Shown: one piece after another, positions 4,133 through 20,249 of the stretch
Layout of the letters: each line of letters starts with the position of its first letter
Numbering within the stretch: the first letter of the stretch is position 1
DNA from: an uncultured Chloroflexia bacterium
Lineage (GTDB): Bacteria; Chloroflexota; Anaerolineae; Anaerolineales; Anaerolineaceae
Length of the DNA: 32,000 nucleotides
Direction: 5' to 3'
NCBI GenBank assembly: GCA_963704755.1
Contig: OY969938.1
Location: 2,400,001-2,432,000 of the forward strand
Notes under the pieces: model-generated
The model's input: the letters and a program-made list of their open reading frames with translations, nothing else
What the model was told of the DNA's origin: nothing
Databases searched by the model: none
Made by a program: the position numbers and the translations under genes

Positions 4133-4693
4133 TTATTCACTTGCTCCTGGTTCACCCTTCTCCCCGGTAAAGGCGTATTCGGTTTCAGCTTTGCATTCAT
4201 TTGACAGCGCCTCCCCGTACGGTTCGTAGCTGCGGTTCAGGCGCACATCCCCCGCCTCGTCCACTAACTGGCGTACCGAGCCAAGCGCATCGCCAATGAA
4301 ATACTCCGTCGAAGCAGCACTTTCTTGTTCCAACCGACAGTTTCCGTAAAGGTAAGTCCGTGCTCCGTCAGCCAATACCTGGGTGAGTGTCCAAAAGGCA
4401 TACTCCACACTGGCGTTCAGGTCCAGGGTGTAGTGGGTGGTCACGCCGTTCTCGAACTGGCGGAGCCGGTCGCCCAGGCCGTTGTAGGCGTAGCCTACCG
4501 TCAGGCCGCTGGCGCTGACCGCGGTCAGTTGGTTGGCGTGGTTGTAGGTATAGGTGTTGACACCATCGTTGAGCAGGTTGCCGTTGCCGTCCCAGGTATA
4601 GCTGACCGCGTTGAGCGTGTTAATACGGTTAGCATCGTCATAGGTGTAGGTATTGACCACTTCCGGCATTTGCGGATCCACCACTTTGGCTTC
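4133..4693 (-). pseudogene. C8: terminal rhs/YD-repeat remnant, truncated at both ends, with no toxin tip
   Basis: YD repeats (YTYDDANRINTLNAVSYTWDGNGN...). The open frame starts right after an in-frame TAA (4694-4696). It ends at ...YAFTGEKGEPGASE*, i.e. inside the conserved AFTGE(N/D)YD core segment, before the DPxG motif. Confidence 0.8.
4441..4690. repeat. ~250-bp near-identical YD-repeat block shared by C8 and C7 (partner at 6662-6912, offset about 2221 bp)
   Basis: Direct comparison of the two stretches shows only scattered mismatches. A more diverged copy lies at 17402-17545 (C2) and 9017-9250 (C6). Confidence 0.8.
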
Positions 4694-4745
4694 TTACATA
4701 TAATAGGTATACAGCACATCATCATTTGATCCAACTATCAGTTGA

Positions 4746-5471
4746 TTACTTCTCATCAATAAATCCCTGCCAATTCTTATACGATGATAAAGATAGATAA
4801 CTTTGCAATTGGCTATCTTCCATAATATGTACAATATCAACGTTCAGCTCATTTGGCATCTTTAAGCTAGATTGAATGATTTTTTCGCATAGATCTTGTC
4901 TAAAAAATGGTGTACGTTCACCATAATGATATAAAATCATTTTTCTTGAAATCCAGACAAGCCCCACATCACATCCCTTTCCTTCCGGATCATTTCTCTG
5001 ATAAAAAAATCCATCCGGTATTCCGATTTCATCAACCACCTCATAAAAACTAATTTGAAAATTAGGGAATACCTTTATATCGTAAAGTTTATCATCGGTA
5101 ATTGTTCGGAAATCGACTGCTAGCATATTCAGAGGTTTTTTGTAAATCGTTTGAATCTCATCACCTGGAATAAATCGATTTACGGAATTGCTCCAAATCT
5201 CGATTGATTTCTCTTTGGTTTCATCAAGATTTAGAAATCCTAAATTTTGGATTTCCTTAATCACATCTTCCTTTGTTGATTTACCAGGAATGAGACCATA
5301 CCAACATGGCGGAGTACATAGTATTTTTTTATTCATCCAACTGTTATCAATAAATTTGGGATCAGTAATATTAGAATTTCCGCTATCTTTTATGCAAGCA
5401 CATAATAGAAATACTAATCCCAAACTTATCAGACCTAAGCTAAGGCAGATTATTGATCTGTTTCTCAACAT
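4746..5471 (-). CDS. Putative lipoprotein immunity protein for the C7 metallopeptidase tip (CxPPCW[YW]G family, paralog of 7087..7803)
   Basis: ATG at 5469-5471 preceded by AAGGAAG. Signal peptide with lipobox LCAC, then the motif CTPPCWYGLIPGKS. It overlaps the toxin 3' end by 32 nt. AT-rich. Confidence 0.6.
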   Translation of the reverse strand: MLRNRSIICLSLGLISLGLVFLLCACIKDSGNSNITDPKFIDNSWMNKKILCTPPCWYGLIPGKSTKEDVIKEIQNLGFLNLDETKEKSIEIWSNSVNRFIPGDEIQTIYKKPLNMLAVDFRTITDDKLYDIKVFPNFQISFYEVVDEIGIPDGFFYQRNDPEGKGCDVGLVWISRKMILYHYGERTPFFRQDLCEKIIQSSLKMPNELNVDIVHIMEDSQLQSYLSLSSYKNWQGFIDEK

Positions 5472-7086
5472 AACTCTTCCTTTTTGGGGTATTTCCAATT
5501 CCGATTACTAATCCGGATTGATAATTAGGATAAACATAATATGCTAAAGATTGAGCCCAATCCTCTGCGCCTGGGTGGGTAAATAAAGGTCCTCCACCTC
5601 CATAAGTTGATGAATATGGGAATTCTTTGCATTCATTAATTGGATTTTGTGGACCAGGGGTTGAAGATGCACATTTGCTTTTTGTGTCGGGTGGAGGTTC
5701 GGGATAAGTGATCCCTCCAGAAGCATCAACTGTCGGTTTATATGGATCCCAATGGCATCCGCCCATACCCAGGCAATCCCAAGTTCCTAACTCTTGCATC
5801 AACCCATAAGATAATTGATTTCCAGTTTGATAATCCCATACGTGTCCAAATTCATGAACGAAAGTATGTTTATAATAATCATCATAACCTGTTTGTAAAT
5901 CGTCAAAAACAATATCCCCCAATAGAGGTTCCCAAATCCCTGGAGGAGACATAGCTCCTAATCCATGAATTTTATTTATCCTCAAACTCTTTACAGCAAC
6001 ATTCATTTTCCCATTCATTTTAGAATTCAAATCAATAGCCGCTTGTTTTATCAGCTTCAGTTCATCAAGTATCCAATTGCCCTTTCTCCATTCACAAGAG
6101 GTTTTCTCACGGGGATTTGGAATATACCCTGTAACCGAAATTGGTCCCCAATCTTTTTTTATGGTTATTCCGAAAGTTAGCAAATCTTTCAAATATTGAT
6201 CAGCTGCACCCGTTTCGCTCTGCTCAATATGCCCAGTTGGATCTTTGTAATTAATTGGGTCCCCGGTGACATATAACCAGGAGTTATAGGACATGGGGTT
6301 TCTAACATTAGTTGGCCAGATATCCTTGCTGACAAACCTTCCGTCTGCCGGCTGGTAGTACCTCGCCCGCATATAGACCAGCCCGGTCAGTGCATCATAA
6401 TCTTCTCCGGTAAAAGCGTAATCTGTGGTGGCGGTTCCTTGGCTCTCCAGCACCTCCCCATACGGCGCATAGCTCTGAGTCAAAGTGACCTCGCCCTCCT
6501 CGTCGGTCATCTGCCGTACACTGCCCAGTGCATCCGGCAGGAAGTAACCGGTCTGGGTCTCACTCACCTGGGCAATGCGATTTACACCATACAGGTAGCT
6601 ATTCGTCCCATCCTGCAGCACCTGGGTCAGCCCGGCGTTCAGGTCCAGGGTGTAGTGGGTGGTCACGCCGTTCTCGAACCGGCTGAGCCGGTCGCCCAGG
6701 CCGTTGTAGGCGTAGCCTGCGGTCAGGCCGCTGGCGCTGACCGCGGTCAGTTGGTTGGCGTGGTTGTAGGTATAGGTGTTGACACCATCGTTGGGCAGGT
6801 TGCCGTTGCCGTCCCAGGTATAGCTGACCGCGTTGAGCGTGTTAATGCGGTTAGCGTCGTCATAGGTGTAGGTATTGACCACTTCCGGCAGGAGCGGGTC
6901 CACTACTTTGGCTTCCTCCAGGCGGTTACCGACCGCGTCATACTGATAATGGAAGTATAGCCCTGAATCGTAATCCGCGGCGGTCAGGCGGTTGAGCGGG
7001 TCGTATGTGTAGTCGATGGTGTGGCTGCCTGGTGGGGGCTCGTCGTACGGAATGCGCGCTGGAAGGACTTTGAGGACATTCTTTTC
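5440..7086 (-). CDS. C7: orphan (5'-truncated) rhs C-terminal module with a HExxH zinc-metallopeptidase toxin tip
   Basis: The frame is open from directly after the TAA of the upstream immunity gene (7087-7089). There is no ATG; the first GTG is at 6903. It carries YD repeats, the core end ...LVYMRARYYQPADGRFVSKD...GDPINYKDPTGH, and a tip from ~6228. HEFGH is encoded at 5842-5856. Confidence 0.8.
   Translation of the reverse strand, partial: EKNVLKVLPARIPYDEPPPGSHTIDYTYDPLNRLTAADYDSGLYFHYQYDAVGNRLEEAKVVDPLLPEVVNTYTYDDANRINTLNAVSYTWDGNGNLPNDGVNTYTYNHANQLTAVSASGLTAGYAYNGLGDRLSRFENGVTTHYTLDLNAGLTQVLQDGTNSYLYGVNRIAQVSETQTGYFLPDALGSVRQMTDEEGEVTLTQSYAPYGEVLESQGTATTDYAFTGEDYDALTGLVYMRARYYQPADGRFVSKDIWPTNVRNPMSYNSWLYVTGDPINYKDPTGHIEQSETGAADQYLKDLLTFGITIKKDWGPISVTGYIPNPREKTSCEWRKGNWILDELKLIKQAAIDLNSKMNGKMNVAVKSLRINKIHGLGAMSPPGIWEPLLGDIVFDDLQTGYDDYYKHTFVHEFGHVWDYQTGNQLSYGLMQELGTWDCLGMGGCHWDPYKPTVDASGGITYPEPPPDTKSKCASSTPGPQNPINECKEFPYSSTYGGGGPLFTHPGAEDWAQSLAYYVYPNYQSGLVIGIGNTPKRKSYVEKQINNLP
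5762..6675. repeat. Copy A of a ~914-bp identical or near-identical block of a tandem duplication (copy B at 8103-9016, offset 2341 bp)
   Basis: Every six-frame ORF translation in this span is identical to its partner (for example 5965..6180 = 8306..8521). Spot-checked nucleotides are identical. Confidence 0.9.
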
Positions 7087-7803
7087 TTATTTCACAGTAT
7101 TAAACCCTTGCCATCTTCTATAAGTTGTCATCGAGTGAAAATCTTCTATTTGACTTTCATCCATAAGATCAATATAACTTACATCCAATCCAGAAGGTAA
7201 TTTATCTCTATATTCATCGACTTTTTCGCAAAGATCTTTTGTAAAGATTGAGGGATTATCACCGAAATAATAGATCACCATTTTTCGAGAAAGCCAAATG
7301 ACAGCTAAGTCACACCCTCTTCCTTCGGGACCCTTTTTCGAAAGGGTAAACCCGTCTGGTTTTCCAATCTTCTCAACAACCTCATTTATGGTGATGTGAT
7401 AATTGGGTGACAGTCTAATATAATTTAAAATGTCCTGGTCTGAAAATTGAAAATATGCAGCCCACATATTCATAGGCTCTTTGTAATAAACCCATACAGC
7501 TTTCCCCGAGACAAGTTCTTCTTTTGTATCGCTCCAATAAGTAATATCCTTCTCGGTGAATTTTTCCGAATCTAAGAAAATTATTGATGGAATAGCATCA
7601 AGTAGTTCATTTATTGATGAATAACCCGGTGAAATCCCATACCAACAAGGAGGTTTACATGGTTTATCCTCTAGCCAACTTTGATCTATAAGGTCAGGGT
7701 CGGATATATTGGTTGGCACACCATTGATGCATGCTGAAATAATAATTAATAAACCTAACCAAGATAACCCAAACCTAATGTAGATTATTAATTTGCTTTT
7801 CAA
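7087..7803 (-). CDS. Putative lipoprotein immunity protein for the C6 metallopeptidase tip (CxPPCW[YW]G family)
   Basis: TTG start at 7803 preceded by AAGGAAG. Lipobox ISAC. Motif CKPPCWYGISPGYS. Clearly homologous to 4746..5471 but much more diverged than the toxin core. It overlaps the toxin 3' end by 29 nt. Confidence 0.6.
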   Translation of the reverse strand: MKSKLIIYIRFGLSWLGLLIIISACINGVPTNISDPDLIDQSWLEDKPCKPPCWYGISPGYSSINELLDAIPSIIFLDSEKFTEKDITYWSDTKEELVSGKAVWVYYKEPMNMWAAYFQFSDQDILNYIRLSPNYHITINEVVEKIGKPDGFTLSKKGPEGRGCDLAVIWLSRKMVIYYFGDNPSIFTKDLCEKVDEYRDKLPSGLDVSYIDLMDESQIEDFHSMTTYRRWQGFNTVK

Positions 7804-9621
7804 TGTATTTCTTCCTTATCGGTGTATTTCCAATTCCTATTACTATTTTTGATTCATAATTGATATAGACATAATATGCCAATGATTGTGACCAATCTTC
7901 GGCACCTGGACCAGTAACAAGTTCACCACCTTTTCCATAAGTTGAAGCATATGGATATTTTTTACAATCCAGGATTGGATTGGTGTTTTGAGGTCCAGGT
8001 GGGGAAATTTCACAACCTGCCAGAGTATCTGGCGGTGGTTCTGGATAAGTAATATTTCCAGAAGCATCAACTGTCGGTTTATATGGATCCCAATGGCACC
8101 CTCCCATACCCAGGCAATCCCAAGTTCCTAACTCTTGCATCAACCCATAAGATAATTGATTTCCAGTTTGATAATCCCATACGTGTCCAAATTCATGAAC
8201 GAAAGTATGTTTATAATAATCATCATAACCTGTTTGTAAATCGTCAAAAACAATATCCCCCAATAGAGGTTCCCAAATCCCTGGAGGAGACATAGCTCCT
8301 AATCCATGAATTTTATTTATCCTCAAACTCTTTACAGCAACATTCATTTTCCCATTCATTTTAGAATTCAAATCAATAGCCGCTTGTTTTATCAGCTTCA
8401 GTTCATCAAGTATCCAATTGCCCTTTCTCCATTCACAAGAGGTTTTCTCACGGGGATTTGGAATATACCCTGTAACCGAAATTGGTCCCCAATCTTTTTT
8501 TATGGTTATTCCGAAAGTTAGCAAATCTTTCAAATATTGATCAGCTGCACCCGTTTCGCTCTGCTCAATATGCCCAGTTGGATCTTTGTAATTAATTGGG
8601 TCCCCGGTGACATATAACCAGGAGTTATAGGACATGGGGTTTCTAACATTAGTTGGCCAGATATCCTTGCTGACAAACCTTCCGTCTGCCGGCTGGTAGT
8701 ACCTCGCCCGCATATAGACCAGCCCGGTCAGTGCATCATAATCTTCTCCGGTAAAAGCGTAATCTGTGGTGGCGGTTCCTTGGCTCTCCAGCACCTCCCC
8801 ATACGGCGCATAGCTCTGAGTCAAAGTGACCTCGCCCTCCTCGTCGGTCATCTGCCGTACACTGCCCAGTGCATCCGGCAGGAAGTAACCGGTCTGGGTC
8901 TCACTCACCTGGGCAATGCGATTTACACCATACAGGTAGCTATTCGTCCCATCCTGCAGCACCTGGGTCAGCCCGGCGTTCAGGTCCAGGGTGTAGTGGG
9001 TGGTCACGCCGTTCTCAAACTGGCTGAGCCGATCACGTTGTACGTGTAACCTACTGTCAAGCCGCTGTTGCTGACCGCGGCCAATTGGTTGGCATGATTG
9101 TAGATGTAGGTGTATACACCATCATTGAGTAAATTACCGTTGTCGTCCCAGGTGTAATTGGCCCCGTTGATTGTGGCGATACGGTTGGCATCGTCGTAAG
9201 TATATATTTTGACCACCTCTGGCATAAGTGGGTTCACCACTTTGGTTTCCTCCAGGCGATTTCCAACCGCATCATACTGGTAATGGAAGTATAGCCCCGA
9301 ATCATAATCTGCAGCGGTCAGACGGTTGAGCGGGTCGTAGCTGTAGTCGATGGTCAGGCTGTTCGGCGGGGTACCTTCCTCACGGGCCGGTGCGGCCTGT
9401 ACCTTGATGGCGATTTCCGGCAGACCGAAACCGGTTATGTCCTCGACTTTTTCGTTCAAAGGTGGGTTGGGGCGTTCGGCCCACATATTGCCGGCACTTT
9501 GCTTAGTCGCTGCTGTAACCGGGTGAGATGCTCCTTCCCAAAACGTTTTTTCTTGTTTCTTATCCTCGCTGGTACTGAAAAGCCCACTCAGCCAATCCAA
9601 TGGACTGCCGGACAAGGCCAA
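7775..9621 (-). pseudogene. C6: rhs C-terminal module with a HExxH metallopeptidase tip, split by a 7-bp deletion
   Basis: ORFs 9004..9621 and 7775..9007 are one reading frame interrupted at ~9036/9037. Relative to C7, the 7 nt 'ccaggcc' (the GLGD codons) are missing. HEFGH is at 8183-8197. There is no ATG at the 5' end; the tracked start is a TTG. Confidence 0.8.
8103..9016. repeat. Copy B of the tandem duplication block (partner at 5762-6675)
   Basis: See copy A. Confidence 0.9.
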
Positions 9622-9695
9622 TAGCGAACCACCGGGGAAAAGGCGGATAAAACCAACTCGCTACGAAAACCGCCCAAAGGTCCTCAAATCCCAGA

Positions 9696-10307
9696 TCATT
9701 TATTTTTAGGTGGCTCACTATCGTCCTGAAGATGAAATGACCATGTCCATTCTGAACCAGCCAGCCGGGTTTGACGAAGAATAATCCCTCGTGGATTGTT
9801 TTCCTTTGACCCTGTCACGATCAAGACAACTTCGTCAGGCATTTCAATCACTTCATTTTCACAATAATCGATGGCTGTAAAAAGCTGTGGATCAATTCCT
9901 CCACCTTCTCGATTGAAAATCGAATCTAGCTCACCAGCTCGCTTCATACCTGTAAAATGCAGCCTTATATATCCACTATCTCTATATTCTATCCACCAGT
10001 TCATCCAATCACTAGCATATTTCTTCCCTTCATCTGGATTGATGTAGATTTGTTTATAAGTCCCATCTTCCTTTATTATCAACAAATCTTCATCATGAAG
10101 ACCATAATTGGCAATCCATTTTCCAATTAAATCGGATTCTTTGAAATTGGTGGGCAACGGAGGGCACAGACTCAACTCAACCGTCTCTGTGGATGAAATA
10201 GCTTGTCGGTTTGTAAGTGAATCTAGGCCCTTACAAGAAGTCGTTGAAACAAGGAACAAAACTGTAAAAATTAATCTTTTTAATAAATGTGCCACTTCAC
10301 ACCCCAT
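9696..10307 (-). CDS. Putative secreted or lipoprotein immunity protein for the C5 tip
   Basis: The ATG at 10305-10307 overlaps the toxin TAA (10307-10309) as TAATG. Signal-peptide-like HLLKRLIFTVLFLVSTTSC. AT-rich. No recognised family. Confidence 0.5.
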   Translation of the reverse strand: MGCEVAHLLKRLIFTVLFLVSTTSCKGLDSLTNRQAISSTETVELSLCPPLPTNFKESDLIGKWIANYGLHDEDLLIIKEDGTYKQIYINPDEGKKYASDWMNWWIEYRDSGYIRLHFTGMKRAGELDSIFNREGGGIDPQLFTAIDYCENEVIEMPDEVVLIVTGSKENNPRGIILRQTRLAGSEWTWSFHLQDDSEPPKNK

Positions 10308-11605
10308 TATTGAATATCTATCAATTGTAGATAAAATGGCCATGGAATTTTCTGTTGTAAACACCCCAAACTATGTTCACTCCATCTGAACGTTTGATAC
10401 ATATTTCCGCCTCCCATCAAGAATCCAGTTTCCCCACGTGTTCTTGGTTCCAGAATGGCCACAATTTCTGGATAACGGAGAAGAATATCTATAACACCCT
10501 CATTTTCCATGTCCTTATGCTCTTGAACAAATTGTTCTAAGGTGTAAGGGTTATTGCGTTCCTCGAAAGGTGGAAAACGCGTTGGTATATGGGTGCCTGA
10601 AGCTAAGTCAGTTCGGTTGATTATCTCGAATTCAACTCTATCAGTTGACGACTTTTCCACCCTGTAATCAAAAGAACCTAAAAAATGTGTTATAGGAAAG
10701 AAAAATTCACCTGTCGAAAAATTAATTCCATCGATTAAGGCCAGAATAAATTCTGGTGGATTAAATTTGCTTTCTTTTGGCGTTGTAATATCTCCAAACT
10801 TATAAAATTCTTTTCGTACAGCATCTAATAAGATAGATCGTGCCAATTCATTTGTAAGTGCGTCATTACGGTTAAATAATACTGTGTCTGGCCCACGTTC
10901 ACAAAGGTAGTCAGCTACTAGATCTATGGCACTCTCCGGCTTAGTCCATCTCGGATCAAGGCAATTAAACCGATTGTTCCATGGATTCTTTTGACTCAAA
11001 GATAATAAAAGTGGACCAGCTTGACTATATAAAGCTTTAGCGGCTATTACTGTATTCTTTGCAGTATCTGCACAACCTATAAAAGGAATGTCACATAAAA
11101 GTGGTGAATAACCAGAAGGGTCCGTTTGATTTAAGACATTATTTTTAACATAAATCCAATTATTAAGTGAGAGAGGGTCTGAGGGATTCCCTGCCCATGT
11201 ATCCTTGCTGACAAACCGCCCGTCCCCCGGCTGGTAGTACCTCGCCCGCATATAGACCAGCCCGGTCAGTGCATCACAATCTTCTCCAGTGAAAGCGTAC
11301 GCCGTAGTGGTGGTTCCTTGGCTCTCCAGCACCTCCCCATACGGCGTATAGCTCTGCGTCAAAGTGACCTCGCCCTCCGCGTCGGTCATCTGCCGTACAC
11401 TGCCCAGTGCATCCGGCAGGAAGTAACCGGTCTGGGTCTCACTCACCTGGGCAATGCGATTTACACCATACAGGTAGCTATTCGTCCCATCCTGCAGCAC
11501 CTGGGTCAGCCCGGCGTTCAGGTCCAGGGTATAGGTCTTCAGTATGTCACTGGTGGTAGAGGCAAGACGGTCTCCCTGCCTGACGTAATTATAGTTGATT
11601 GCTAG
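10307..11605 (-). CDS. C5: orphan rhs C-terminal module with a tip of unknown function (~265 aa)
   Basis: The frame is open from 11605 (TAG at 11606-11608). The A-type core reads ...TYTLDLNAGLTQVLQDGTNSYLYGVNRIAQ...YMRARYYQPGDGRFVSKD...NQTDPSGY. The tip starts at ~11107. No ATG; GTG at 11500. Confidence 0.75.
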   Translation of the reverse strand, partial: LAINYNYVRQGDRLASTTSDILKTYTLDLNAGLTQVLQDGTNSYLYGVNRIAQVSETQTGYFLPDALGSVRQMTDAEGEVTLTQSYTPYGEVLESQGTTTTAYAFTGEDCDALTGLVYMRARYYQPGDGRFVSKDTWAGNPSDPLSLNNWIYVKNNVLNQTDPSGYSPLLCDIPFIGCADTAKNTVIAAKALYSQAGPLLLSLSQKNPWNNRFNCLDPRWTKPESAIDLVADYLCERGPDTVLFNRNDALTNELARSILLDAVRKEFYKFGDITTPKESKFNPPEFILALIDGINFSTGEFFFPITHFLGSFDYRVEKSSTDRVEFEIINRTDLASGTHIPTRFPPFEERNNPYTLEQFVQEHKDMENEGVIDILLRYPEIVAILEPRTRGETGFLMGGGNMYQTFRWSEHSLGCLQQKIPWPFYLQLIDIQ

Positions 11606-11650
11606 CTACTAGCGGCGAATAGTTGTCAACCAATCGGAACTACAACCTCT

Positions 11651-12068
11651 TTATTTTGTTTCTGAATACCCAACCATATAGCGCTGCCCATCAACGACAA
11701 TGCTATTTGCTTCGATGAGCAACGATGCAGACCAAATTTCTAAAACAAAATTAGCACTAATTGATTTTTCAATAAACCTTCCGTAAGAAGAATTTCTGTT
11801 AATCAACATATTTTCTCCTGGTAAATATGAAATTGAAGTTAATTCAGCATATTGCCATGCGGCATTTTGAAAACGATTTTCCCCATCTCCGCCAACAAAG
11901 TAAAACGACGAAACGTTCTCCAAAATAACATAATGCTGAATAATTCGGTCTCGAGTTCTCATTATAAAAGCTAATTGAAATCAAATGTCCGCATAAATCA
12001 ACAGAGAAATCTGTGATTATCCCACCTGTAAATTCGAGAAACGATTTTTCAAAAAAGTCTTTATCCAT
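11651..12068 (-). CDS. Putative immunity protein for the C4 tip (two overlapping ORFs; possible frameshift near 11950)
   Basis: The ATG at 12066-12068 lies 2 nt after the corrected toxin stop (TAG 12071-12073). ORFs 11844..12068 and 11651..11962 overlap in different frames. It could be one ~140-aa gene or a 103-aa gene starting at 11962. Confidence 0.4.
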
Positions 12069-12070
12069 TT

Positions 12071-13350
12071 CTATCTTATCCTTTTCGCGGTATCAATCAA
12101 TCGAATAATGTCATCATATGATGTTGACGTGAATGCGTGATGGGCTTCCGCAAGAATATTCGAATAATAATCACCTTGAAGTGGTAAAGAACCTTTGCCA
12201 TCTACACTCACTCGCCAATATGGTTCATTTCGAATTCCACCACTATTTATTATTCTAACAACAATATCACGGTTTCCTGCCCCTTTCTTTATTGTAACCC
12301 GCCAGCCATTTCCTTGAGCAGGACCAAAATCGCCACCTGTATTGTTCGCAACTTTTTGAGATAAAGCTTCACGTTCAGCAGGTGTATCATAAGGTTTATT
12401 GCTTCCTCCAGTAGAACTTGAGAAATAATATTGGGCAGTGGGTCCACCATCTCTTTAACAACCAGGTGCCCGAGCATCAGCGCACCATGCCCAGCAAGCG
12501 CCATACTTATTGTCGCTACGGGAATGCCCGCAATAGCCCCTTCCCCAGTCAAGGATATTCCACCCCCTCCAACCATTCCAGCGAGCCCAAACCCAATTTC
12601 AGCAGCAGCCTGGACAAAAACAAAGGCCCGGCCATAATATCGACCTGCAACCACCTCTGGATTACGAAGATTGTACGAAGCTCCACACTCAAATAACTCA
12701 TCCGCTAGGGCATGCGCAATCGATGAAACGCCTATTATGCTTATTGCATCCAGGTATTCATGGGCAAACCCGTAGATAAAGCCGAGAGCTTGGTTGCTAT
12801 TTTGGCTGAGCATACCGAAAATTTCAGCTTGATGCTTGTAGAAACCTGCCCACTTTTGAGTTTCCTCTTCATTGCACGTTCGCCCAGGACCAACCGAAAA
12901 TCCCGCCACACACCAATTTCCACTCGGGTCGATTAATATGATTGGATTGGCATTTGCATAAGCCCAATAGTTATAGGAAATTGGTTGATACTCATTTCCG
13001 TCCCAAGTATCCTTAGAAATGAATTTTCCATCCCCACCAGCATAATACCGTGCCCGCGGATAAACCAGCCCCGTCTGTGGATCGTAATTTTCTCCGGTAA
13101 AGGCATAACCTGTCTCGGCCTCCCCATCACTGGCCAGCTCTTCCCCGTACGGTTCATAGCTACGGTTCAGGCGTACTTCACCCGCCTCGTCCACCAACTG
13201 GCGCACCGATCCAAGCGTGTCGCCAATAAAATACTCGGTTGAATCTGAGCCTTCTTGCTCCAGCCGGCTGTTTCTGTAAAGGTAGGTCTTTGCTCCGTCA
13301 GCCAATTTCTGGGTGAGTGCCCAAGGGGCGTGCTCCGCACGTATGTTCAA
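12071..13350 (-). CDS. C4: orphan rhs C-terminal module; the tip has a Gly-rich hydrophobic segment and a hidden C-terminal domain recovered across a frameshift at ~12452
   Basis: B-type core ...STEYFIGDTLGSVRQLVDEAGEVRLNRSYEPYGE...ARYYAGGDGKFISKD...LIDPSGN, with the tip from ~12915. The tracked ORF ends in low-quality sequence at 12289. The adjacent frame is open from ~12455 to TAG 12071-12073 and encodes ~128 aa (RDGGPTAQYYF...GNGWRVTIKKGAGNRDIVVRIINSGG...AEAHHAF...TAKRIR). Confidence 0.7.
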
Positions 13351-13520
13351 GCCTGTGTTGTTAACGATCCTTCCTTTCGTAGTATCTCTATAGGAAACCC
13401 AAATGGATCATTTCAATACGCTTTGTTGGAAAGCCCAAAGTGCATACTTGATAATCGTGAAAGCGCTAGGTGGTTTTTGGAATTGCATATGTATGAATAA
13501 TTCAAAAGTAAAAGTCGAAA

Positions 13521-14405
13521 TTATCCAACAAATCCCGAATTGATCAAACGAATTGAATAATGTAGGACAGGGAATAGGGCGGTCAAATGGATATTTAATT
13601 GTTCTAAAGAATTGTATCCCCACACAATTATTGGTGAAAATTTCGATCCTATTATTTGAAAAGCAGGAGTGGAATAATTTAAAAACAAAAAAGTCGGTAA
13701 TGGCATTTCTCTAACTATTTTCGATCCTATATTTTGTTGAGCATTTGTGTGATGCTCTTTTAATATAATAGCGAATTCGAATCCTTTAGGCTCTAGGATT
13801 AAGTAATTATGGAATTCAAATTCAACAGTACGATTTGATTTCTTTTTTCTTGCGACTAAGATTTCCCTATCATTTTTATATTCTAAATGGTAATCGTACT
13901 TTGTAAATAAATCACCATACATTGCTATTATAGAACTCTGAAAATCAATATTATCTTCACGATCAATTTCATAGTAATTTACTGATGACGGATTATCCAG
14001 CCATGGAATACCATACTTGATAATTTTTTCTATTGCATCCTTCAGCTTAACTTCAAACTCCTCCTTGTTTCTTGCTTCCCACCAATTTGCCTCAACTTCG
14101 TCTGTTTGAGCAAAATTGTACCTGATCAAGTCGGCTAAGCGACTAAACAGCGGAACTTGATAATCCGGGCTATCATTTGGAACTAATGGAATTCGATAAA
14201 TGTTTACAGTAAACGAATAGGATATAGGTATTTCATTATATTGTCGCCTTTGAAATTGGACCTTTTTTATTACTTTAGCATCAACCAAGGACTCAAATTC
14301 GTACATTACATTACTAATACCTTGTGCATTATGTTCTACATCGTAATAACCGAATTGATTTAATGCCGGATCAACCAAGGAGTGGAATATTTGTAATAAA
14401 GTCAT
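13521..14405 (-). CDS. Putative immunity protein for the C3 nuclease-like tip (294 aa, unknown family)
   Basis: AT-rich ORF 57 nt downstream of the C3 stop, on the same strand. No signal peptide. Confidence 0.45.
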   Translation of the reverse strand: MTLLQIFHSLVDPALNQFGYYDVEHNAQGISNVMYEFESLVDAKVIKKVQFQRRQYNEIPISYSFTVNIYRIPLVPNDSPDYQVPLFSRLADLIRYNFAQTDEVEANWWEARNKEEFEVKLKDAIEKIIKYGIPWLDNPSSVNYYEIDREDNIDFQSSIIAMYGDLFTKYDYHLEYKNDREILVARKKKSNRTVEFEFHNYLILEPKGFEFAIILKEHHTNAQQNIGSKIVREMPLPTFLFLNYSTPAFQIIGSKFSPIIVWGYNSLEQLNIHLTALFPVLHYSIRLINSGFVG

Positions 14406-14462
14406 TATAAAATCGCTCCATTAAATTAATTGTGAAAATTTCAAATTGATGCAATCTGAGGA

Positions 14463-15521
14463 CTAAGGGATTGCTCCAGCAAGGGCAGGAATCACCCACT
14501 CATCGCCGGGTATTGGATCTAACAGCGTCACGGTAATTCCTACAGCAATCAAAATTTGAATGCACTTTTGTGTGTACGCTGGTTGAGGAAGCCCAGAAAT
14601 TTCCTTACTCTCCTTTTTCTCCATCGATTTAGTTTGCTTATTGTATTCGTACATATATTTGGGTACTGGAATTGAGACAGGAATTTTATCTTTACGAACA
14701 CTCTTATATATAATTACTCCTGATGAACTCATCGAGGACATTATAATAGAGCCAGAATAATAAGGATTGACCCCTACAATATCCCACCCATTCACGACCC
14801 ATTTATAATTAGTGCCTTTTCGAAGTGATTTTGGGGTTTTGGGATCTGGCAGTGCATTGTATACGTCAACATACCATTGTATTTCAGCCGCACCTTGAAC
14901 CAATTGCTTTTCGTTCTTAATCTCAAAAGCTTCTTTAGTAGTTTCGTTTACAATATCAATATAACCTATATTTCCAGTCGGTGTGCCAATAAGAATCGGT
15001 ACTCCGTTGTCATCACTTAAGCCTAAATTTGCTTTTGATCCACCACGTACAGGAAATTCTGGTATTACGATTTTTCCCATCCCATAAGTTGTCTCATAAT
15101 GCATTTGGATCATTCTATGTATTAGCTCTCCAGAATATAATCCTGTTGGATCAAAATAATTTATTGGATTCGCTTGGGTATACAGCCAATTATTATAAGA
15201 CATTGGCAGATAATAATTACCTTGCCAAATATCGCTAGATAGGAATCTGCCATTATTGACAGCATAATACCTGGCCCGTAAATAAACCAGCCCGGTCTGT
15301 GGATCGTAATTTTCTCCGGTAAAGGCATAATCTGTCTCGGCTTCGCCATCAGCCGTCAATATTTCTCCATACGGTTCATAGCTACGGTTCAGGCGTACTT
15401 CACCCGCCTCGTCCACCAACTGGCGCACCGATCCAAGCGCGTCGCCAATGAAATACTCCGTCGAAACGGCGCTTTTGGGATGGGTTCGTATTGGTTTGGT
15501 AAAGAGCAAACCGTCATTCAT
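14463..15521 (-). CDS. C3: orphan rhs C-terminal module with a PD-(D/E)xK-like nuclease tip and a hydrophobic C-terminal tail
   Basis: B-type core homology starts only at STEYFIGDALGSVRQLV (about 15460). The core ends at ...NYFDPTGL and the tip starts at ~15137. Motifs are EFPV ... YIDIVNETTKEAFEIKN (E-I-K at 14916-14924). The tail is GLPQPAY plus a hydrophobic stretch. It has its own ATG (15519-15521) in a non-homologous 20-codon leader. Confidence 0.75.
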   Translation of the reverse strand: MNDGLLFTKPIRTHPKSAVSTEYFIGDALGSVRQLVDEAGEVRLNRSYEPYGEILTADGEAETDYAFTGENYDPQTGLVYLRARYYAVNNGRFLSSDIWQGNYYLPMSYNNWLYTQANPINYFDPTGLYSGELIHRMIQMHYETTYGMGKIVIPEFPVRGGSKANLGLSDDNGVPILIGTPTGNIGYIDIVNETTKEAFEIKNEKQLVQGAAEIQWYVDVYNALPDPKTPKSLRKGTNYKWVVNGWDIVGVNPYYSGSIIMSSMSSSGVIIYKSVRKDKIPVSIPVPKYMYEYNKQTKSMEKKESKEISGLPQPAYTQKCIQILIAVGITVTLLDPIPGDEWVIPALAGAIP

Positions 15522-15665
15522 TTTTCTGGATAATGTCGGATCACGATTTAAGTTTTTCTCAAACTGTTCGTGGAGGGGTATTCGGTCATTCTAATAATTG
15601 AATAATCAAGGTTACCCTAAACGAGGGCGAAAGAAGCTGGGTTCACGTCTATTTTTCTTGTCTTT

Positions 15666-16184
15666 TTACTCTTGTTCAAAGGTCGTTAGTTGTTCGATTT
15701 TCTCGAGTATGATTTGTCGCAAATCCTCCAATTCCGGGATCATTTTTCCAGATTCTTGTGCTAACTGAATAACAAGCGTTGGAGGTGATCTATGTCTTGA
15801 ATGTATATGGGTAAATATTCTTTTTTTCAGGTTAGGCTCATGGTTTACTTCACTCTCTTTTTCCCCCAATTCATCGCGGTATGCCATAGTAATTTTTGCG
15901 TCTGTGTCGCTCAATATCTCTAGCAACCTTATGAGGGCGCTCATTTTCTCTCTTAATAGCTCATCTTCCATACCATCGGATGCTACTAAAAATTGTCTTT
16001 GAACTCGATCCATGTTTGGACCAAAATACTCGTTGTCAAAATCTGCTAAGCCTGAAGCATGATTAACAATGTAACTTTTTGCTAGGCTAAAACAGGTTTC
16101 TGCTAATTGTGCCAGGAATCTAAGGAATTCTTGATACGACACATCAATGATTGTTCCATCACCATAAATATCAAATTTAGTCAT
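15666..16184 (-). CDS. Putative immunity protein for the C2 tip (172 aa, unknown family)
   Basis: The ATG lies 32 nt downstream of the C2 stop, with an AGGA-type RBS. Acidic, helical-looking, AT-rich. Confidence 0.45.
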   Translation of the reverse strand: MTKFDIYGDGTIIDVSYQEFLRFLAQLAETCFSLAKSYIVNHASGLADFDNEYFGPNMDRVQRQFLVASDGMEDELLREKMSALIRLLEILSDTDAKITMAYRDELGEKESEVNHEPNLKKRIFTHIHSRHRSPPTLVIQLAQESGKMIPELEDLRQIILEKIEQLTTFEQE

Positions 16185-16216
16185 GTTTTATCCTGTGTAG
16201 TTCACACGGTAGTTAA

Positions 16217-17401
16217 TCATGGAACCCGGGAGAATGCCGCCAGCCGAAGGCCATAGTTTACTAGAAGAATACCCCCAGGAACGGTTACGACGTCATCAAC
16301 AATACCCACCACTGTCGCGTCTTCTACAATTGTGACAACTACAATTGTTCCACCAGCCAATATAAGGACTGTACCACAAGCCGTACCAAAATCAATAGCA
16401 TAAGCAGGTTGATAAGGTTGTGAACTTGGAACCCAATTGCGTGGCCTGAGCAATCGTTTATTTGGAACCAGACCCGCTAGTGGTTTTCCTAAGAGAACGG
16501 GCGCAAGTGCATTGGGCTCAATCCAATAAGCTATGACCCCGTTCCCAACATAGTCGGCGACTAAATCCACAAAAGGAAATGCTAGACTGAGCGGAGTTTT
16601 TCTATACTTGCCTGGCCAATCTGAACCTAGGCCAATATGAAATGGCGTTTGATTCCAATCATAATCACCACCTAACAAATGGTTCCCCAGTAATAGATTG
16701 GCTTGAGCTGCTATAGATAAATCTGCAACATATCCTTGAACCTGAATAGCTCCCGATGCAATTAATAATATGGGTTCAATTTCGTAGACATCGCCTGTCA
16801 GTGAGTTGAACATGTCAGGATGCCTAAAAGGTGTGCCAGGGACCGGATACTCTAATTGTTTGCTGGGATTAAAACCATACATGGCTTCGTAGTAATCTTC
16901 AATTGGCATATGGTACATAGGTTCTGCAAGCCACCAACGCCACATACCACCAGGATCAATGAAATTGACAGGATTTCCTTCAACGTAATTCCAGCGATTT
17001 AGCGATGTGGGATTGTAATAGTCCCCCAGCCAGGAGTTTTTTGAGATAAATCGACCTGTTGAGAGAGATAGGTATCTTGATCGCAAGTAGATCAGCCCGG
17101 TCTGTGGATCATAATTTTCCCCGGTAAAGGCATAATCCGTCTCGGCCTCCCCATCACTGGCCAATACTTCCCCATACGGTTCGTAGCTGCGGTTTAGGCG
17201 TACTTCACCCGCCTCGTCCACCAACTGGCGCACCGAGCCAAGCGCATCGCCAATAAAATACTCCGTCGAGGCGGTGCCCGCTTGTTCCAGCCGGCCGTTT
17301 CCGTAAAGGTAAGTCCGTGCTCCCTCTGCCAATACCTGGGTGAATGTCCAAAAGGCATACTCCACACTGGCGTTTAGATCCAGGGTATATTGAATGGTCA
17401 T
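16217..17401 (-). CDS. C2: orphan rhs C-terminal module with a PD-(D/E)xK-like tip (E-I-E variant) and a hydrophobic tail
   Basis: ATG at 17399-17401. The B-type core ends at ...NFIDPGGM and the tip starts at ~16942. Motifs are LEYPVPG ... PDMFNSLTGDVYEIEP (E-I-E at 16775-16783). The tail is QPYQPAY plus a long hydrophobic stretch. YD-repeat homology continues upstream to ~17545 but contains an in-frame TAA (17486-17488). Confidence 0.75.
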   Translation of the reverse strand: MTIQYTLDLNASVEYAFWTFTQVLAEGARTYLYGNGRLEQAGTASTEYFIGDALGSVRQLVDEAGEVRLNRSYEPYGEVLASDGEAETDYAFTGENYDPQTGLIYLRSRYLSLSTGRFISKNSWLGDYYNPTSLNRWNYVEGNPVNFIDPGGMWRWWLAEPMYHMPIEDYYEAMYGFNPSKQLEYPVPGTPFRHPDMFNSLTGDVYEIEPILLIASGAIQVQGYVADLSIAAQANLLLGNHLLGGDYDWNQTPFHIGLGSDWPGKYRKTPLSLAFPFVDLVADYVGNGVIAYWIEPNALAPVLLGKPLAGLVPNKRLLRPRNWVPSSQPYQPAYAIDFGTACGTVLILAGGTIVVVTIVEDATVVGIVDDVVTVPGGILLVNYGLRLAAFSRVP

Positions 17402-17672
17402 GCCGTTCTCGAATTGGCGGAGCCGGTCGCCCAGGCCGTTGTAGGCGTAGCCTGCGGTCAGGCCGCTGCCGCTGACCGCGGTCAGTTAGTTGGCCTGATT
17501 GTAAGGGTAGGAATACACACCATCGCTCAGGAGATTCCTATTTTAGGCCAAGGTAAAGTCCACATCGCTGTATCACGAAGGGAAGATAATCACTTAATCG
17601 GTATTGCCTTATCATCGATGAAACTGTTTTCTCGATTGCTTAATTCGAAGAATTTATTAATGGCAATAATAT

Positions 17673-18101
17673 CTAATGATCCCTACTCTGCAAATCCTCG
17701 GCCGATAATTTTCGTAGAATTTGTATGTGGCAATCAATAGAATCTCTTTCGAAATTTGCTCTTGCCATATCACGATTTATTCGATATGGATTGTTAGCCA
17801 TAATGGTATCAAATAGGTCGCTATGAATATATATTGTTATTGCAACTACCTTTATAGGTATTTCTTGGCTAAGTAAGCAAGTAAGAATTTCTTCCGCCAA
17901 TAACTTAATATTAAGCTCGCCTTTTATGTTTCTTGATGATATTGGGTTATTTTCGCTATGGAACCAAGAAATATTGACTTTATCATTTCCTGCCACCTGC
18001 ATTGTAAAAGTCAGATTGATTATAAATAAAGGTAAATTTTGCTCTTCAAATAGCGAAATGATTTTCTGCAACAATTCAGTGATTTTCAAATTGATTGGCA
18101 T
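17673..18101 (-). CDS. Putative immunity protein for the C1 tip (142 aa, unknown family)
   Basis: The ATG lies 33 nt downstream of the C1 stop and is preceded by AGGAG. AT-rich. Confidence 0.5.
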   Translation of the reverse strand: MPINLKITELLQKIISLFEEQNLPLFIINLTFTMQVAGNDKVNISWFHSENNPISSRNIKGELNIKLLAEEILTCLLSQEIPIKVVAITIYIHSDLFDTIMANNPYRINRDMARANFERDSIDCHIQILRKLSAEDLQSRDH

Positions 18102-18134
18102 TTTTTCTCCTGGAGCGTTAAGAAGGGTACTAGA

Positions 18135-19547
18135 CTACGGCGTTACAAAAACTAGTGGGGGAAAAAGACAAAATTCTGTAATTTTATAACCAAGATAAAT
18201 TATTATAGGTACTGACAAGTAAATTGTCACTTCGGGATTAGGCAATTCTACAGAGTAAGCAGGTTGAGGCGAGAGTCCATTTTTCGGTACCCATCCCTGT
18301 CTTTCATTTCTGGTCGATGTTTCCATTGGCCGTGTAAGATGAATAGGATCAAGCACGGGAACATTAACTGGTTTTGGCCGCCTATATTTCCACCATACAA
18401 TAACACCTGGCATAGGTTGACCAGCATATAAGTCAAATTGACCTGTATCATCATTTCCCAGAAAAACCTCGGAAGGGAAAGAATAACCTTCTACCCAAAA
18501 GGGTGGAAATATATTCCAGTCATATATCATACCAACTGGATTAAATCCTGTTAGCAACAAATTTTCATGAGCATCTTCTAATTCAATTAATCGTGGCTGA
18601 AGCTCTAATAGAGCTTCATTTTGATCAGCCCATGGTTTTATTTCCCAAACTTCTCCTGAAAGAGAATCTAACAGGTCAACTTTAGTTCCTAAAGGCGGAA
18701 TCGGATATTCAGCATGAATTTGATCTATACACCCCATCATTGCAATTTCTTGAACACGGACTGAAACATTTTGAGATTGGAATCTATTCCTTGAAGAATT
18801 TAGAAGTGATTCACCAGGCCCCCAAAAGTAATGGCCTGAGGGGTCTAATCTCGATAATGGATTATTTGCTGTATAAACCCACAATGAAACCGTTTGAGGC
18901 AATAATTCTTTAATGGGCCATATATCCTTGCTAACAAACCTCCCATCCGTCGAGTCGTAGTACCTCGCCCGCAAATAAACCAGCCCGGTCAACGAATCAT
19001 AATCTTCTCCGGTAAAAGCGTAAACTGTGGACGCGGTTCCTACGCTTTCAAGCACCTCTCCATAGGGCGTGTAGCTCTGCGTCAAAGTGACCTCGCCCTC
19101 CTCGTCGGTCATCTGCCTCACCGACCCTAGTGTGTCCGTCAGGAAGTAACCGGAATGAGTTTCACTCACCTGGGCAATGCGGTTTACACCATAAACGTAG
19201 GTATTTGTCCCATCCTGAAGTACCTGGGTCAGCCCGGCGTTCAGGTCCAGGGTATAGGTCTTCAGTATGTCACTGGTGGTAGAGGCCAAGCAGTCTCCCT
19301 GGCCGTTATAGCTATAGCTGCTAATCACGGACCCCTGATTATTAATTGATATCAGCCGGTTGGCGTGGTCGTATGTGTAGGCATAGGTCCCATCGTTCAG
19401 CAAATTGTCGTTATCATCCCACTGGTATTCGGTCTCATTGACATTGGTCAGCCGGTTGGCAGCGTCGTAGCTATAGCTGGTCGTCCCGGCGGCAGTCGTT
19501 TCGCTCAGGCGGTTACCGACTGCATCGATCGTGATCGTCATGGACAA
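18135..19547 (-). CDS. C1: rhs C-terminal module truncated at its 5' end by an IS630 remnant; PD-(D/E)xK-like nuclease tip with a hydrophobic tail
   Basis: YD repeats plus an A-type core ending ...NNPLSRLDPSGH, with the tip from ~18830. Motifs are AEYPIPP ... VDLLDSLSGEVWEIKP (E-I-K at 18636-18644). The tail is LSPQPAY plus a hydrophobic stretch. The 5' end abuts IS630 sequence at ~19525-19540. Confidence 0.8.
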   Translation of the reverse strand: MSMTITIDAVGNRLSETTAAGTTSYSYDAANRLTNVNETEYQWDDNDNLLNDGTYAYTYDHANRLISINNQGSVISSYSYNGQGDCLASTTSDILKTYTLDLNAGLTQVLQDGTNTYVYGVNRIAQVSETHSGYFLTDTLGSVRQMTDEEGEVTLTQSYTPYGEVLESVGTASTVYAFTGEDYDSLTGLVYLRARYYDSTDGRFVSKDIWPIKELLPQTVSLWVYTANNPLSRLDPSGHYFWGPGESLLNSSRNRFQSQNVSVRVQEIAMMGCIDQIHAEYPIPPLGTKVDLLDSLSGEVWEIKPWADQNEALLELQPRLIELEDAHENLLLTGFNPVGMIYDWNIFPPFWVEGYSFPSEVFLGNDDTGQFDLYAGQPMPGVIVWWKYRRPKPVNVPVLDPIHLTRPMETSTRNERQGWVPKNGLSPQPAYSVELPNPEVTIYLSVPIIIYLGYKITEFCLFPPLVFVTP

Positions 19548-19857
19548 CTTGAATACGCACTCGCCGATCTCTTTTTATGAAACTCACGAGCAAGACGAAG
19601 CTCGACGGCGCATTGATCGCTTCGAATTCCATTTCACACCGAAGCATGGTAGTTGGCTGGATATGGCTGAAATCGAGTTGGAGGTCTTGATCCACCAGTG
19701 CCTTTCTCGACGTATTTCCGATAAGGCCGTTTTAGAATCTGAAGTGGCTGCCTGGCAAAACAACCGCAATGCCAAGCTAGTCAAAATCAATTGGCGCTTC
19801 ACAACGGCTGATGCCCGTTTCAAGCCAAAAAACCTCTATCCCGAGATTCACCTTTGA
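19531..19857 (+). mobile_element. IS630-family transposase, C-terminal ~108 aa only (remnant)
   Basis: IVMDNLNTHS...FEFHFTPKHGSWLDMAEIELEVL...QCLSRRI matches the DDE C-terminal part of IS630/Tc1-like transposases. The N-terminal ~2/3 is absent and is replaced by antisense RHS sequence. Confidence 0.75.
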
Positions 19858-19871
19858 CAGACCACATTAGT

Positions 19872-20240
19872 TCACCAAACCCATAACTCATTTACTTTAT
19901 CCCTATATGTGGCGGCTTCAGCTGTAACATAGCTTTCTGGTGTTAACGAGATGAAAAGTGAATATTTGTTTCCAAACATGATTACTATCGATTTTCCTTC
20001 CTCGATAGTGGCCGAGACTATTATCTGACCAATACACTCGAGAAGTAGATTACAAAAATCTTTGGATTCGCGTTTATGTGATATTCCATTAACAAGGATT
20101 TCAGGGTCCGTAATTGCCGTTAAGACGGGACCATCGAATCGAAATTGAATATAATCTCTAACGAATTCTATCGAACTCAACTCGTCATTTATTAATTCAC
20201 TAAACGGATTTTCTTTTGGTTTATTAACTACCCCATTCAT
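19872..20240 (-). CDS. Putative immunity protein for the C0 tip (122 aa)
   Basis: The ATG at 20238-20240 lies 9 nt after the corrected toxin stop (TAA 20250-20252). It is preceded by AAGGAG. AT-rich. Confidence 0.55.
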   Translation of the reverse strand: MNGVVNKPKENPFSELINDELSSIEFVRDYIQFRFDGPVLTAITDPEILVNGISHKRESKDFCNLLLECIGQIIVSATIEEGKSIVIMFGNKYSLFISLTPESYVTAEAATYRDKVNELWVW

Positions 20241-20249
20241 TGGATCTCC

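Follow-up and report, generated by a model that had tools for sequence, protein, structure and literature searches.

Orphan rhs-CT/rhsI modules lie downstream of main rhs genes, have neither start nor export signals, and are open to capture through recombination between homologous core sequences (PMC3967940). Zincin domains of the HExxH type occur C-terminal to RHS repeat proteins as Tox-MPTase1-5, and no immunity family is given for these Tox-MPTases (Zhang et al. 2012, PMC3482391). Periplasmic metallopeptidase effectors with an exported or lipoprotein immunity protein are represented by VgrG2b-CT/PA0261 and Tpe1/Tpi1 (PMC6899460), and recombination between tandem immunity paralogues has been described for esaG and tipC in type VII secretion system (T7SS) loci (PMC9484751). 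The locus considered here is an array of orphan Rhs cassettes in an uncultured Chloroflexia bacterium (assembly GCA_963704755.1, contig OY969938.1, positions 2,400,001 to 2,432,000 of the forward strand). This whole stretch of 32,000 nucleotides is called the window, and all coordinates refer to it. The array consists of at least nine orphan Rhs C-terminal cassettes at 4133-21297 on the minus strand. All cassette genes are encoded on this strand, and "upstream" hence denotes higher coordinates. Two adjacent cassettes, C6 (7087-9621) and C7 (4746-7062), are the only two of the array with homologous toxins and share an identical block of 914 bases, which very probably arose when these old orphan Rhs toxin–immunity paralogues, lying side by side, recently underwent gene conversion. 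The features of the two cassettes are the following.

9017-9621, minus strand: upstream Rhs YD-repeat core fragment of C6; PF05593 at 39.7 bits (cutoff 22); out of frame with the toxin; synonymous divergence (dS) of 1.09 against C7.
8103-9016, minus strand: C6 copy of the identical block, with the Rhs core end (TIGR03696, DPTGH at 8570-8584) and toxin codons 1-155 (HEFGH at 8183-8197).
7775-8102, minus strand: C6 toxin tail, residues 156-264, with the Cys-rich loop region, the GAEDW helix (7892-7906), the C-terminal helix, and the stop codon.
7087-7803, minus strand: imm6, a lipoprotein of 238 residues and candidate immunity protein, with a signal peptide and the lipobox ISAC; 29-base overlap with the toxin 3' end.
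6676-7062, minus strand: upstream Rhs YD-repeat core fragment of C7, beginning directly after the imm6 stop codon and in frame with the toxin.
5762-6675, minus strand: C7 copy of the identical block, with the Rhs core end (DPTGH at 6229-6243) and toxin codons 1-155 (HEFGH at 5842-5856).
5440-5761, minus strand: C7 toxin tail, residues 156-262, with GAEDW at 5557-5571 and the stop codon; divergence sets in at 5715.
4746-5471, minus strand: imm7, a lipoprotein of 241 residues and candidate immunity protein, with its ATG at 5471 and the lipobox LCAC; 32-base overlap with the toxin 3' end.

The stretches 5762-6675 and 8103-9016 match exactly over all 914 bases at an offset of 2341 (the match containing position 6200). 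An earlier reading of the letters, the first-pass annotation, had noted this identity on the level of translations and had located the core end, DPTGH, and the tip through HEFGH within the block; both statements agree with the coordinates, and the tail peptides quoted there for C7 and C6 are correct. The block comprises 447 bases of Rhs core, and its other 467 bases form the beginning of the toxin domain, with 155 codons. The pairwise alignment with identity profile proposed in that annotation (gapped, 4746-7060 against 7087-9394, 2351 columns, 472 differing) features a divergence that is not uniform along the unit but interrupted by the 914-base run. Upon shuffling of the difference positions, the longest identical run is 62 with a mean of 29.5 (5000 permutations). 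The flanks of the block differ by 24-36% between C6 and C7, and the probability of 914 identical sites corresponds to a log10 P of approximately -158 at a flank difference rate of 0.33.

Both edges of the block are resolved within approximately 50 bases. The 3' edge—in the sense of the minus strand—is sharp and marked by two synonymous differences at 5761 and 5758. These are followed by 42 further identical bases down to 5716, and dense differences including a 6-base indel begin at 5715. The decay that had been annotated below about 5760/8100 therefore has its edge there at 5761/5758, but the real onset of divergence lies only at 5715. At the 5' edge, the identity between C6 and C7 drops immediately to 73-88%, in agreement with the divergence previously noted above 6675/9016. 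Some 15-20 bases above this edge, C6 carries a net 7-base deletion at approximately 9031-9035, which shifts the frame and leaves an Rhs core open reading frame (ORF) at 9004-9621 and a toxin ORF at 7775-9007.

An exact repeat of 914 bases with its partner only 2.3 kb away could also be produced during assembly, either by consensus polishing that homogenises similar repeats or by mis-joining of one repeat. This explanation is extremely improbable. The flanks are too far diverged for reads to cross-map past the block, and its edges are biologically structured by isolated synonymous differences, an indel, and a frameshift. In addition, the encoded proteins are recorded on a 4.87-Mb contig, which suggests a finished long-read assembly.

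The age of the individual segments can be judged from dS, the corresponding non-synonymous divergence (dN), and the proportion of differing synonymous sites (pS) between C6 and C7.

Identical block: dS 0.
Rhs core above the block (118 codons): dS 1.09, dN 0.14.
Toxin tail from the first diverged codon (91 codons): pS 0.66, dS approximately 1.6, dN 0.23.
Immunity genes: pS 0.70-0.72 (saturated), dN 0.47.

For the toxin tail below the block, dS amounts to 1.2-1.6. Since both flanks have a dS above 1, the block has a dS of 0, and its edges are sharp, gene conversion between old paralogues is highly probable, and the recent conversion of the 5' part that the first-pass annotation had offered as one of two explanations is strongly supported. 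The identity of the block cannot be attributed to constraint on silent sites because dS for this N-terminal part of the toxin is 0.27-2.8 in six related pairs of other genomes and is there no lower than in the tail. A division into three age strata—block, tail, and immunity gene—was considered and dropped: Without the 16 near-identical codons at the edge, the tail has a pS of 0.66 compared with 0.70-0.72 for the immunity genes, which is indistinguishable at saturation. With regard to switching by a diversity-generating retroelement or an invertase, Pfam scans of ORFs from across the window yielded no reverse transcriptase or invertase, and the pattern of differences between C6 and C7 is neither adenine-specific nor inversion-like.

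The second explanation of the first-pass annotation was that the toxin C-terminal subdomain and its immunity partner co-diversify, which would map the toxin–immunity interface to the divergent region. In its full form, this scenario consists of a recent tandem duplication and subsequent diversifying co-evolution of both parts, as in the two-step model for colicins. The divergence does start inside the toxin and runs on through the immunity gene, and the tail differences reside mostly at variable loop positions, with the catalytic motifs being kept. However, the synonymous sites of the tail and immunity genes are saturated (pS 0.66-0.72), whereas none differ in the block, so these parts separated long before the block coalesced. 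The opposite, upstream flank is equally old with a dS of 1.09, and co-evolution of an interface cannot account for this. The ratio dN/dS, which had been suggested as a check on the tail, amounts to 0.21 for the Cys-loop region and to 0.08 from the Glu helix onwards; there is no non-synonymous excess and no sign of positive selection, with saturation limiting the power of this comparison. The amino acid distances of tail and immunity protein are uncoupled: They are 0.23 and 0.60 for C6 and C7 but 0.23 and 0.06 for two metagenomic cassettes, L003 and L012. Over 11 pairs, the immunity distance correlates with that of the N-terminal part (rho 0.55) no less than with that of the tail (rho 0.51). 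Duplication followed by co-diversification is hence very improbable as a history of the two cassettes, and as the cause of the identity pattern co-diversification is refuted.

The conversion between C6 and C7 is not the only trace of exchange in this array, whose further members are the following.

4133-4693, minus strand: C8, a terminal truncated Rhs core fragment lacking a toxin; its part 4412-4693 is 95.7% identical to the upstream core of C7 at 6634-6915.
9696-21297, minus strand: remaining orphan array of six cassettes with Rhs core end, toxin, and small ORF; core ends 70-95% identical to those of C6 and C7.
10307-11500, 12289-13350, 14463-15521, 16217-17401, 18135-19547, and 20460-21297, minus strand: toxin ORFs of these six cassettes.

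The upstream core of C7 and the C8 fragment have a dS of only 0.07. The core part of the block is 94.5% identical to the cassette core at 11192-11534 with a dS of 0.14, and the other core ends in the array are 70-88% identical. Within the array, the upstream core of C6 does not have the same nearest relatives as that of C7. Outside the window, the identity between L003 and L012 swings between 67% and 100% along toxin and immunity genes. From these sequence comparisons, recombination is evidently routine in the array and in the toxin family, and recombination on the sub-domain level seems to be general in this family. In the alignment of L003 and L012 (columns 315-2040), the immunity genes are 92-100% identical, and two toxin patches are only 67-72% identical.

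In terms of mechanism, homologous recombination—most simply an intrachromosomal conversion of the RecA type—would have copied at least 914 bases between the cassettes. The exchange was most likely nucleated in the Rhs core-end sequence common to all cassettes. It could have extended 467 bases into the toxin because C6 and C7 encode homologous toxins, and it would have stopped in the hypervariable Cys-loop region, where homology is down to approximately 58% and an indel occurs. The outcome is a pair of toxins with identical N-terminal catalytic halves and tails of 77% identity, next to immunity proteins of 39-40% identity; the genes of the latter (4746-5471 and 7087-7803) had been called moderately similar in the first-pass annotation.

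The block could alternatively have been imported: A cassette from a sister strain with the same core end and toxin N-terminal half but another tail and immunity gene would have integrated within the block and thereby duplicated it. The DNA between the two blocks (6676-8102, comprising the C6 tail, imm6, and the upstream core of C7) is indeed one contiguous piece, as in a Campbell-type insertion. The low GC content of toxin and immunity genes points to a horizontal origin of the tips, and mosaic alleles occur in related populations. Nevertheless, import is unlikely, as it presupposes that the incoming and the resident block were 100% identical beforehand and merely moves the recombination event elsewhere. 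In scans of genomes and metagenomes, relatives aligned over most of the toxin domain did not exceed 47%, the decayed tail fragment of a metagenome contig (L016) reaching 67%. The different nearest relatives of the two upstream cores within the same array fit local exchange. A candidate for a sister-strain allele, the 46-residue Logan protein P0016 in the 90%-identity cluster of C6 and C7, was rejected: Its contig bears no similarity to the window, and it looks like a spurious cluster member.

The toxin of the converted cassettes is a domain of 262 residues directly following DPTGH; it is AT-rich and cysteine-rich, with conserved cysteines. A single-sequence search with the toxin found only 13 relatives besides the window's own copy. 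Several dozen relatives with full coverage emerged from a profile search, nearly every one fused to an Rhs core. The Rhs proteins with this domain come from Chloroflexota and a few other phyla, the named relatives being Chloroflexota metagenome-assembled genomes (MAGs)—mostly Anaerolineae but also Chloroflexia—and one Phycisphaerae MAG. Among 74 homologues, H125, E126, and H129 of the HExxH motif are invariant, and E222 of the GAEDW motif is invariant or nearly so. The AlphaFold2 (AF2) model computed from 74 sequences has a mean predicted local distance difference test score (pLDDT) of 93.5 and places HExxH on helix 116-134 and E222 on helix 221-232. The two helices are connected by a long, mostly coil segment with conserved cysteines. 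E222 is a likely candidate for the third zinc ligand. Foldseek matches in the PDB are all weak and all zincins, mostly gluzincins—anthrax lethal factor (LF), PPEP-3, GtgA, and M1 peptidases. The top match, anthrax LF, has an E value of 0.017 and a template modelling (TM) score of 0.33 and is not significant. Weak matches in the viral library BFVD are SprT-, IrrE-, and M34-like proteins. A Pfam scan of the 74 homologues gave scattered sub-threshold zincin matches only, in 1-3 of the 74 members. On the basis of its conserved motifs and predicted fold, we assign the toxin to the zincins, as a divergent HExxH-plus-Glu member outside all described families, Tox-MPTase1-5 included.

Distant members of the toxin family reside at the end of Rhs ORFs of more than 950 residues in two loci (L019, 1913-4855; L028, 1793-4657). 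These ORFs run off the locus and possess, at the N-terminus, domains other than Rhs, along with linkers rich in Thr and Pro. Such an architecture suggests that, in these lineages, large secreted surface proteins deliver the toxin. A contig of a Chloroflexota MAG (L001) carries two cassettes of the same superfamily, 1607-2931 and 6001-7387, 4 kb apart. Their toxins are approximately 25% identical to each other, and the presence of several metallopeptidase cassettes per array is hence not unique to the window.

The lipoprotein gene downstream of the toxin is a frequent companion of this domain. In 27 of 34 related loci from genomes and metagenomes, a lipoprotein homologue is found directly downstream of the toxin, usually overlapping it, and this linkage holds for toxins that are only 25-30% identical to that of C7. 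Inspection of alignments yields a signal peptide and lipobox Cys in most homologues, the boxes of imm6, imm7, and most loci being of the L-[AS]-[AGS]-C type. A Shine–Dalgarno-like AAGGAAGA is embedded in the toxin 3' ends upstream of both imm6 and imm7. Whereas a single-sequence, word-indexed search with imm6 returned only imm6 itself, the family emerged with an exhaustive profile search of a library of 1.84 billion proteins, which gave 567 lipoprotein cluster representatives at E values of at most 0.001. The AF2 model of the lipoprotein has a pLDDT of 92.2 and features an N-terminal helix at residues 3-25. The PDB contains no significant fold match for it, the best having an E value of 0.15. 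The immunity protein carries conserved cysteine pairs. Because it is exported and has these pairs, and because the toxin is cysteine-rich, an action of the toxin outside the cytoplasm is suggested by analogy.

Two observations concern individual immunity genes. The short metagenome contig L016 (1-1086) features an intact immunity homologue after a decayed toxin, whose tail is 63-67% identical to that of C7. The toxin bears stop codons and frameshifts upstream of residue ~171, so the immunity gene was retained after toxin decay. L016 had also been considered as a tail-only truncation at the same breakpoint; this was rejected, as the upstream 142 bases look like decayed toxin with stops and frameshifts. 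Furthermore, both block copies contain a sigma-70-like promoter match (TTTACA, 16 bases, TATTAT; 10/12) at 5872-5899 and 8213-8240 on the minus strand, approximately 400 bases upstream of each immunity start. It may mean nothing, since promoter-like counts are not above those of shuffled sequence; the same holds for the counts of the promoter and terminator scans in general. The match gives rise to the idea that the orphan immunity genes may have an internal promoter.

With the toxin model at hand, the C-terminal tail cannot be regarded as a separable subdomain, as the first-pass annotation had it. It carries the near-invariant Glu of GAEDW on helix 221-232 and, by supplying the putative third zinc ligand, would be part of the catalytic site rather than an independent unit. 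The motif GAEDW(A/S)QSLAYYVY is nearly unchanged between C6 and C7, and their C-terminal lobes differ by 25 positions and a 2-residue indel. The claim that the tail maps the immunity interface is weakened by the comparison of L003 and L012, with their equal tail divergence and near-identical immunity proteins. Should both C6 and C7 pairs be functional and give no cross-protection, the Glu-bearing C-terminal lobe would be the sole determinant of immunity specificity, and arrays would make new specificities by sub-domain conversion besides whole-tip replacement; we regard this as doubtful. Selection may not have acted on the new chimera at all because the cassettes are orphan and C6 is frameshifted, in which case its existence says nothing yet on compatibility with the immunity protein.

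The carrier part of the cassettes is that of Rhs proteins. TIGR03696, the RHS repeat-associated core domain, scores 71.5 and 71.9 bits in the two cassettes compared with a cutoff of 32.5, and the match spans C7 residues 145-225, finishing exactly at DPTGH. PF05593 (RHS_repeat) exceeds its cutoff in the C6 core ORF at 9004-9621, C7 being just below at 21.3 bits, and PF25023 YD-shell matches are all below threshold. Profile comparison with the PDB aligns the core segment to the core ends of TcC, Rhs, and teneurin. In GC content, the core reaches 0.55-0.60, the toxin 0.37-0.42, and the immunity genes 0.33-0.35. This drop at the junction of core and tip is the classic Rhs core–tip discontinuity. 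The Rhs frames open directly after the preceding immunity stop and comprise only approximately 100-270 residues of core before the core end. Because they start after the immunity gene of the previous cassette and no ORF is long enough, the cassettes are orphan rhs-CT/immunity fragments and not main Rhs genes. Autoproteolytic toxin release may occur at the core end, of which only the motif is present.

Several further elements are found in the array and its surroundings. A broken transposase of the IS256/Mutator family (22323-23535, minus strand; three ORF fragments, PF00872) adjoins the upstream end of the array and occupies the place where the main rhs gene would be expected, and a fragment of a DDE_3 (IS630-like) transposase is located between cassettes C1 and C2 (19531-19857, plus strand). 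The array may have lost its main rhs gene through the activity of insertion sequences (IS). Upstream of C1, at 21322-22210 on the minus strand, are ORFs with the CxxPCWxG...PG motif that members of the lipoprotein immunity family have at the N-terminus. Their profile match has an E value of 2.8e-9, covers positions 47-97 of the hidden Markov model (HMM) only, and is split over two overlapping ORFs; judged by this partial match, the region probably represents an orphan immunity gene that is decayed or very divergent and has lost its toxin. Two downstream ORFs on the minus strand belong to families seen beside polymorphic toxins: a YxiG-like ORF at 11651-11962 (PF24711, E value 1.4e-21) and a DUF4304 ORF at 13521-14405 (E value 1.9e-6). 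YxiG belongs to the wapA orphan region of Bacillus subtilis, and the YxiG-like ORF hints at a WapA-like, Sec-dependent Rhs system. The toxin domains of 14463-15521, 16217-17401, and 18135-19547 have two short motifs in common: a D...E(I/V)(K/E)P stretch that recalls PD-(D/E)xK nucleases, and QPAY at the C-terminus with a hydrophobic tail behind it. None of the three has a Pfam match, and they may constitute another undescribed family with three copies in the array. A PADLOC scan gave no matches, and the locus is hence not a known defence-system component.

Some points weigh against the picture of gene conversion between functional toxin–immunity paralogues. The window contains no full-length rhs gene—no ORF comes near full Rhs length—and the cassettes may be relics. 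A second strain or pre-conversion allele was not found in the genome and metagenome scans. The toxin domain has no significant match in Pfam, NCBIfam, or the PDB, nor does the lipoprotein, for which none of 73 family members has a Pfam match. The peptidase activity and the site of action of the toxin are functions that we infer, and the downstream lipoprotein would, from its sequence and position, be the cognate immunity protein that neutralises the toxin.

Gene conversion between Rhs cassettes is known behaviour of a known kind of locus, and the general understanding of polymorphic toxin systems is unaltered by C6 and C7. New are a putative Rhs-borne zincin toxin family and a candidate lipoprotein immunity family, both undescribed and found in Chloroflexota, as well as a tract that ends inside the catalytic domain and leaves a natural chimera of N-lobe and C-lobe. 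The locus is a clean example of how toxin arrays of the "rearrangement hot spot" type evolve: The carrier sequence nucleates conversion, and related toxins let the tract enter the toxin-coding part. The C6/C7 pair provides a ready-made construct set for mapping immunity specificity, and the two uncharacterised families come with confident models and no relatives in Pfam or the PDB.

Compared with described systems, the array is closest to the orphan rhs-CT/rhsI modules of Salmonella, Escherichia coli, and Dickeya (PMC3150448, PMC3967940) and to the wapA region of B. subtilis, which are tandem modules as well. Orphan rhs modules and those of the window alike keep a stretch of Rhs core that leads to the core-end DPxG motif, with a variable toxin and a small immunity ORF behind it. 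Both lack signals for start and export, use homologous core sequence as the substrate of recombination, and drop in GC between core and tip. Like the wapA region, one cassette of the window carries a YxiG-like ORF (PF24711). Unlike the known orphan modules, the array has no adjoining full-length rhs gene but an IS256-family pseudogene at its upstream end, its host is a member of the Chloroflexota, and the tract passes the core end and ends inside the toxin, giving rise to chimeric toxins instead of a whole-tip swap.

The zincin domain fused to the C-terminus of RHS repeat proteins and its HExxH motif are shared with Tox-MPTase1-5. In contrast to these, the toxin of the window is matched by no Pfam model (74 homologues scanned) and has a tightly linked lipoprotein partner. 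The M34 gluzincins—anthrax LF and the Pro-Pro endopeptidases—feature a HExxH helix and a Glu on a later helix, as does the toxin of the window. They are its best structural matches, although weak and not significant (E values 0.017-0.6, TM scores 0.33-0.36), and they have no counterpart to its long Cys-rich loop between the two helices. VgrG2b/PA0261 and Tpe1/Tpi1 of the type VI secretion systems (T6SSs) of Pseudomonas and Acinetobacter combine a HExxH metallopeptidase toxin outside the cytoplasm with an exported immunity protein, in several lineages a lipoprotein. This likeness is one of analogy, the function of the window proteins being the one proposed above, and disulfide-dependent folding is plausible in both VgrG2b-type toxins and the toxins of the window. 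A sequence or fold relationship with VgrG2b was not detected, as it is absent from the top Foldseek matches and there is no Pfam match, and the carrier in the window is Rhs rather than VgrG. With respect to the recombination itself, the esaG/tipC loci and silent-cassette conversion of the pilE/pilS type follow the same principle, in which shared homology blocks of tandem paralogues nucleate conversion and lead to mosaic genes. Unlike in those systems, the conserved block of the window is the Rhs core carrier, and the tract spills over into the catalytic domain of the toxin.

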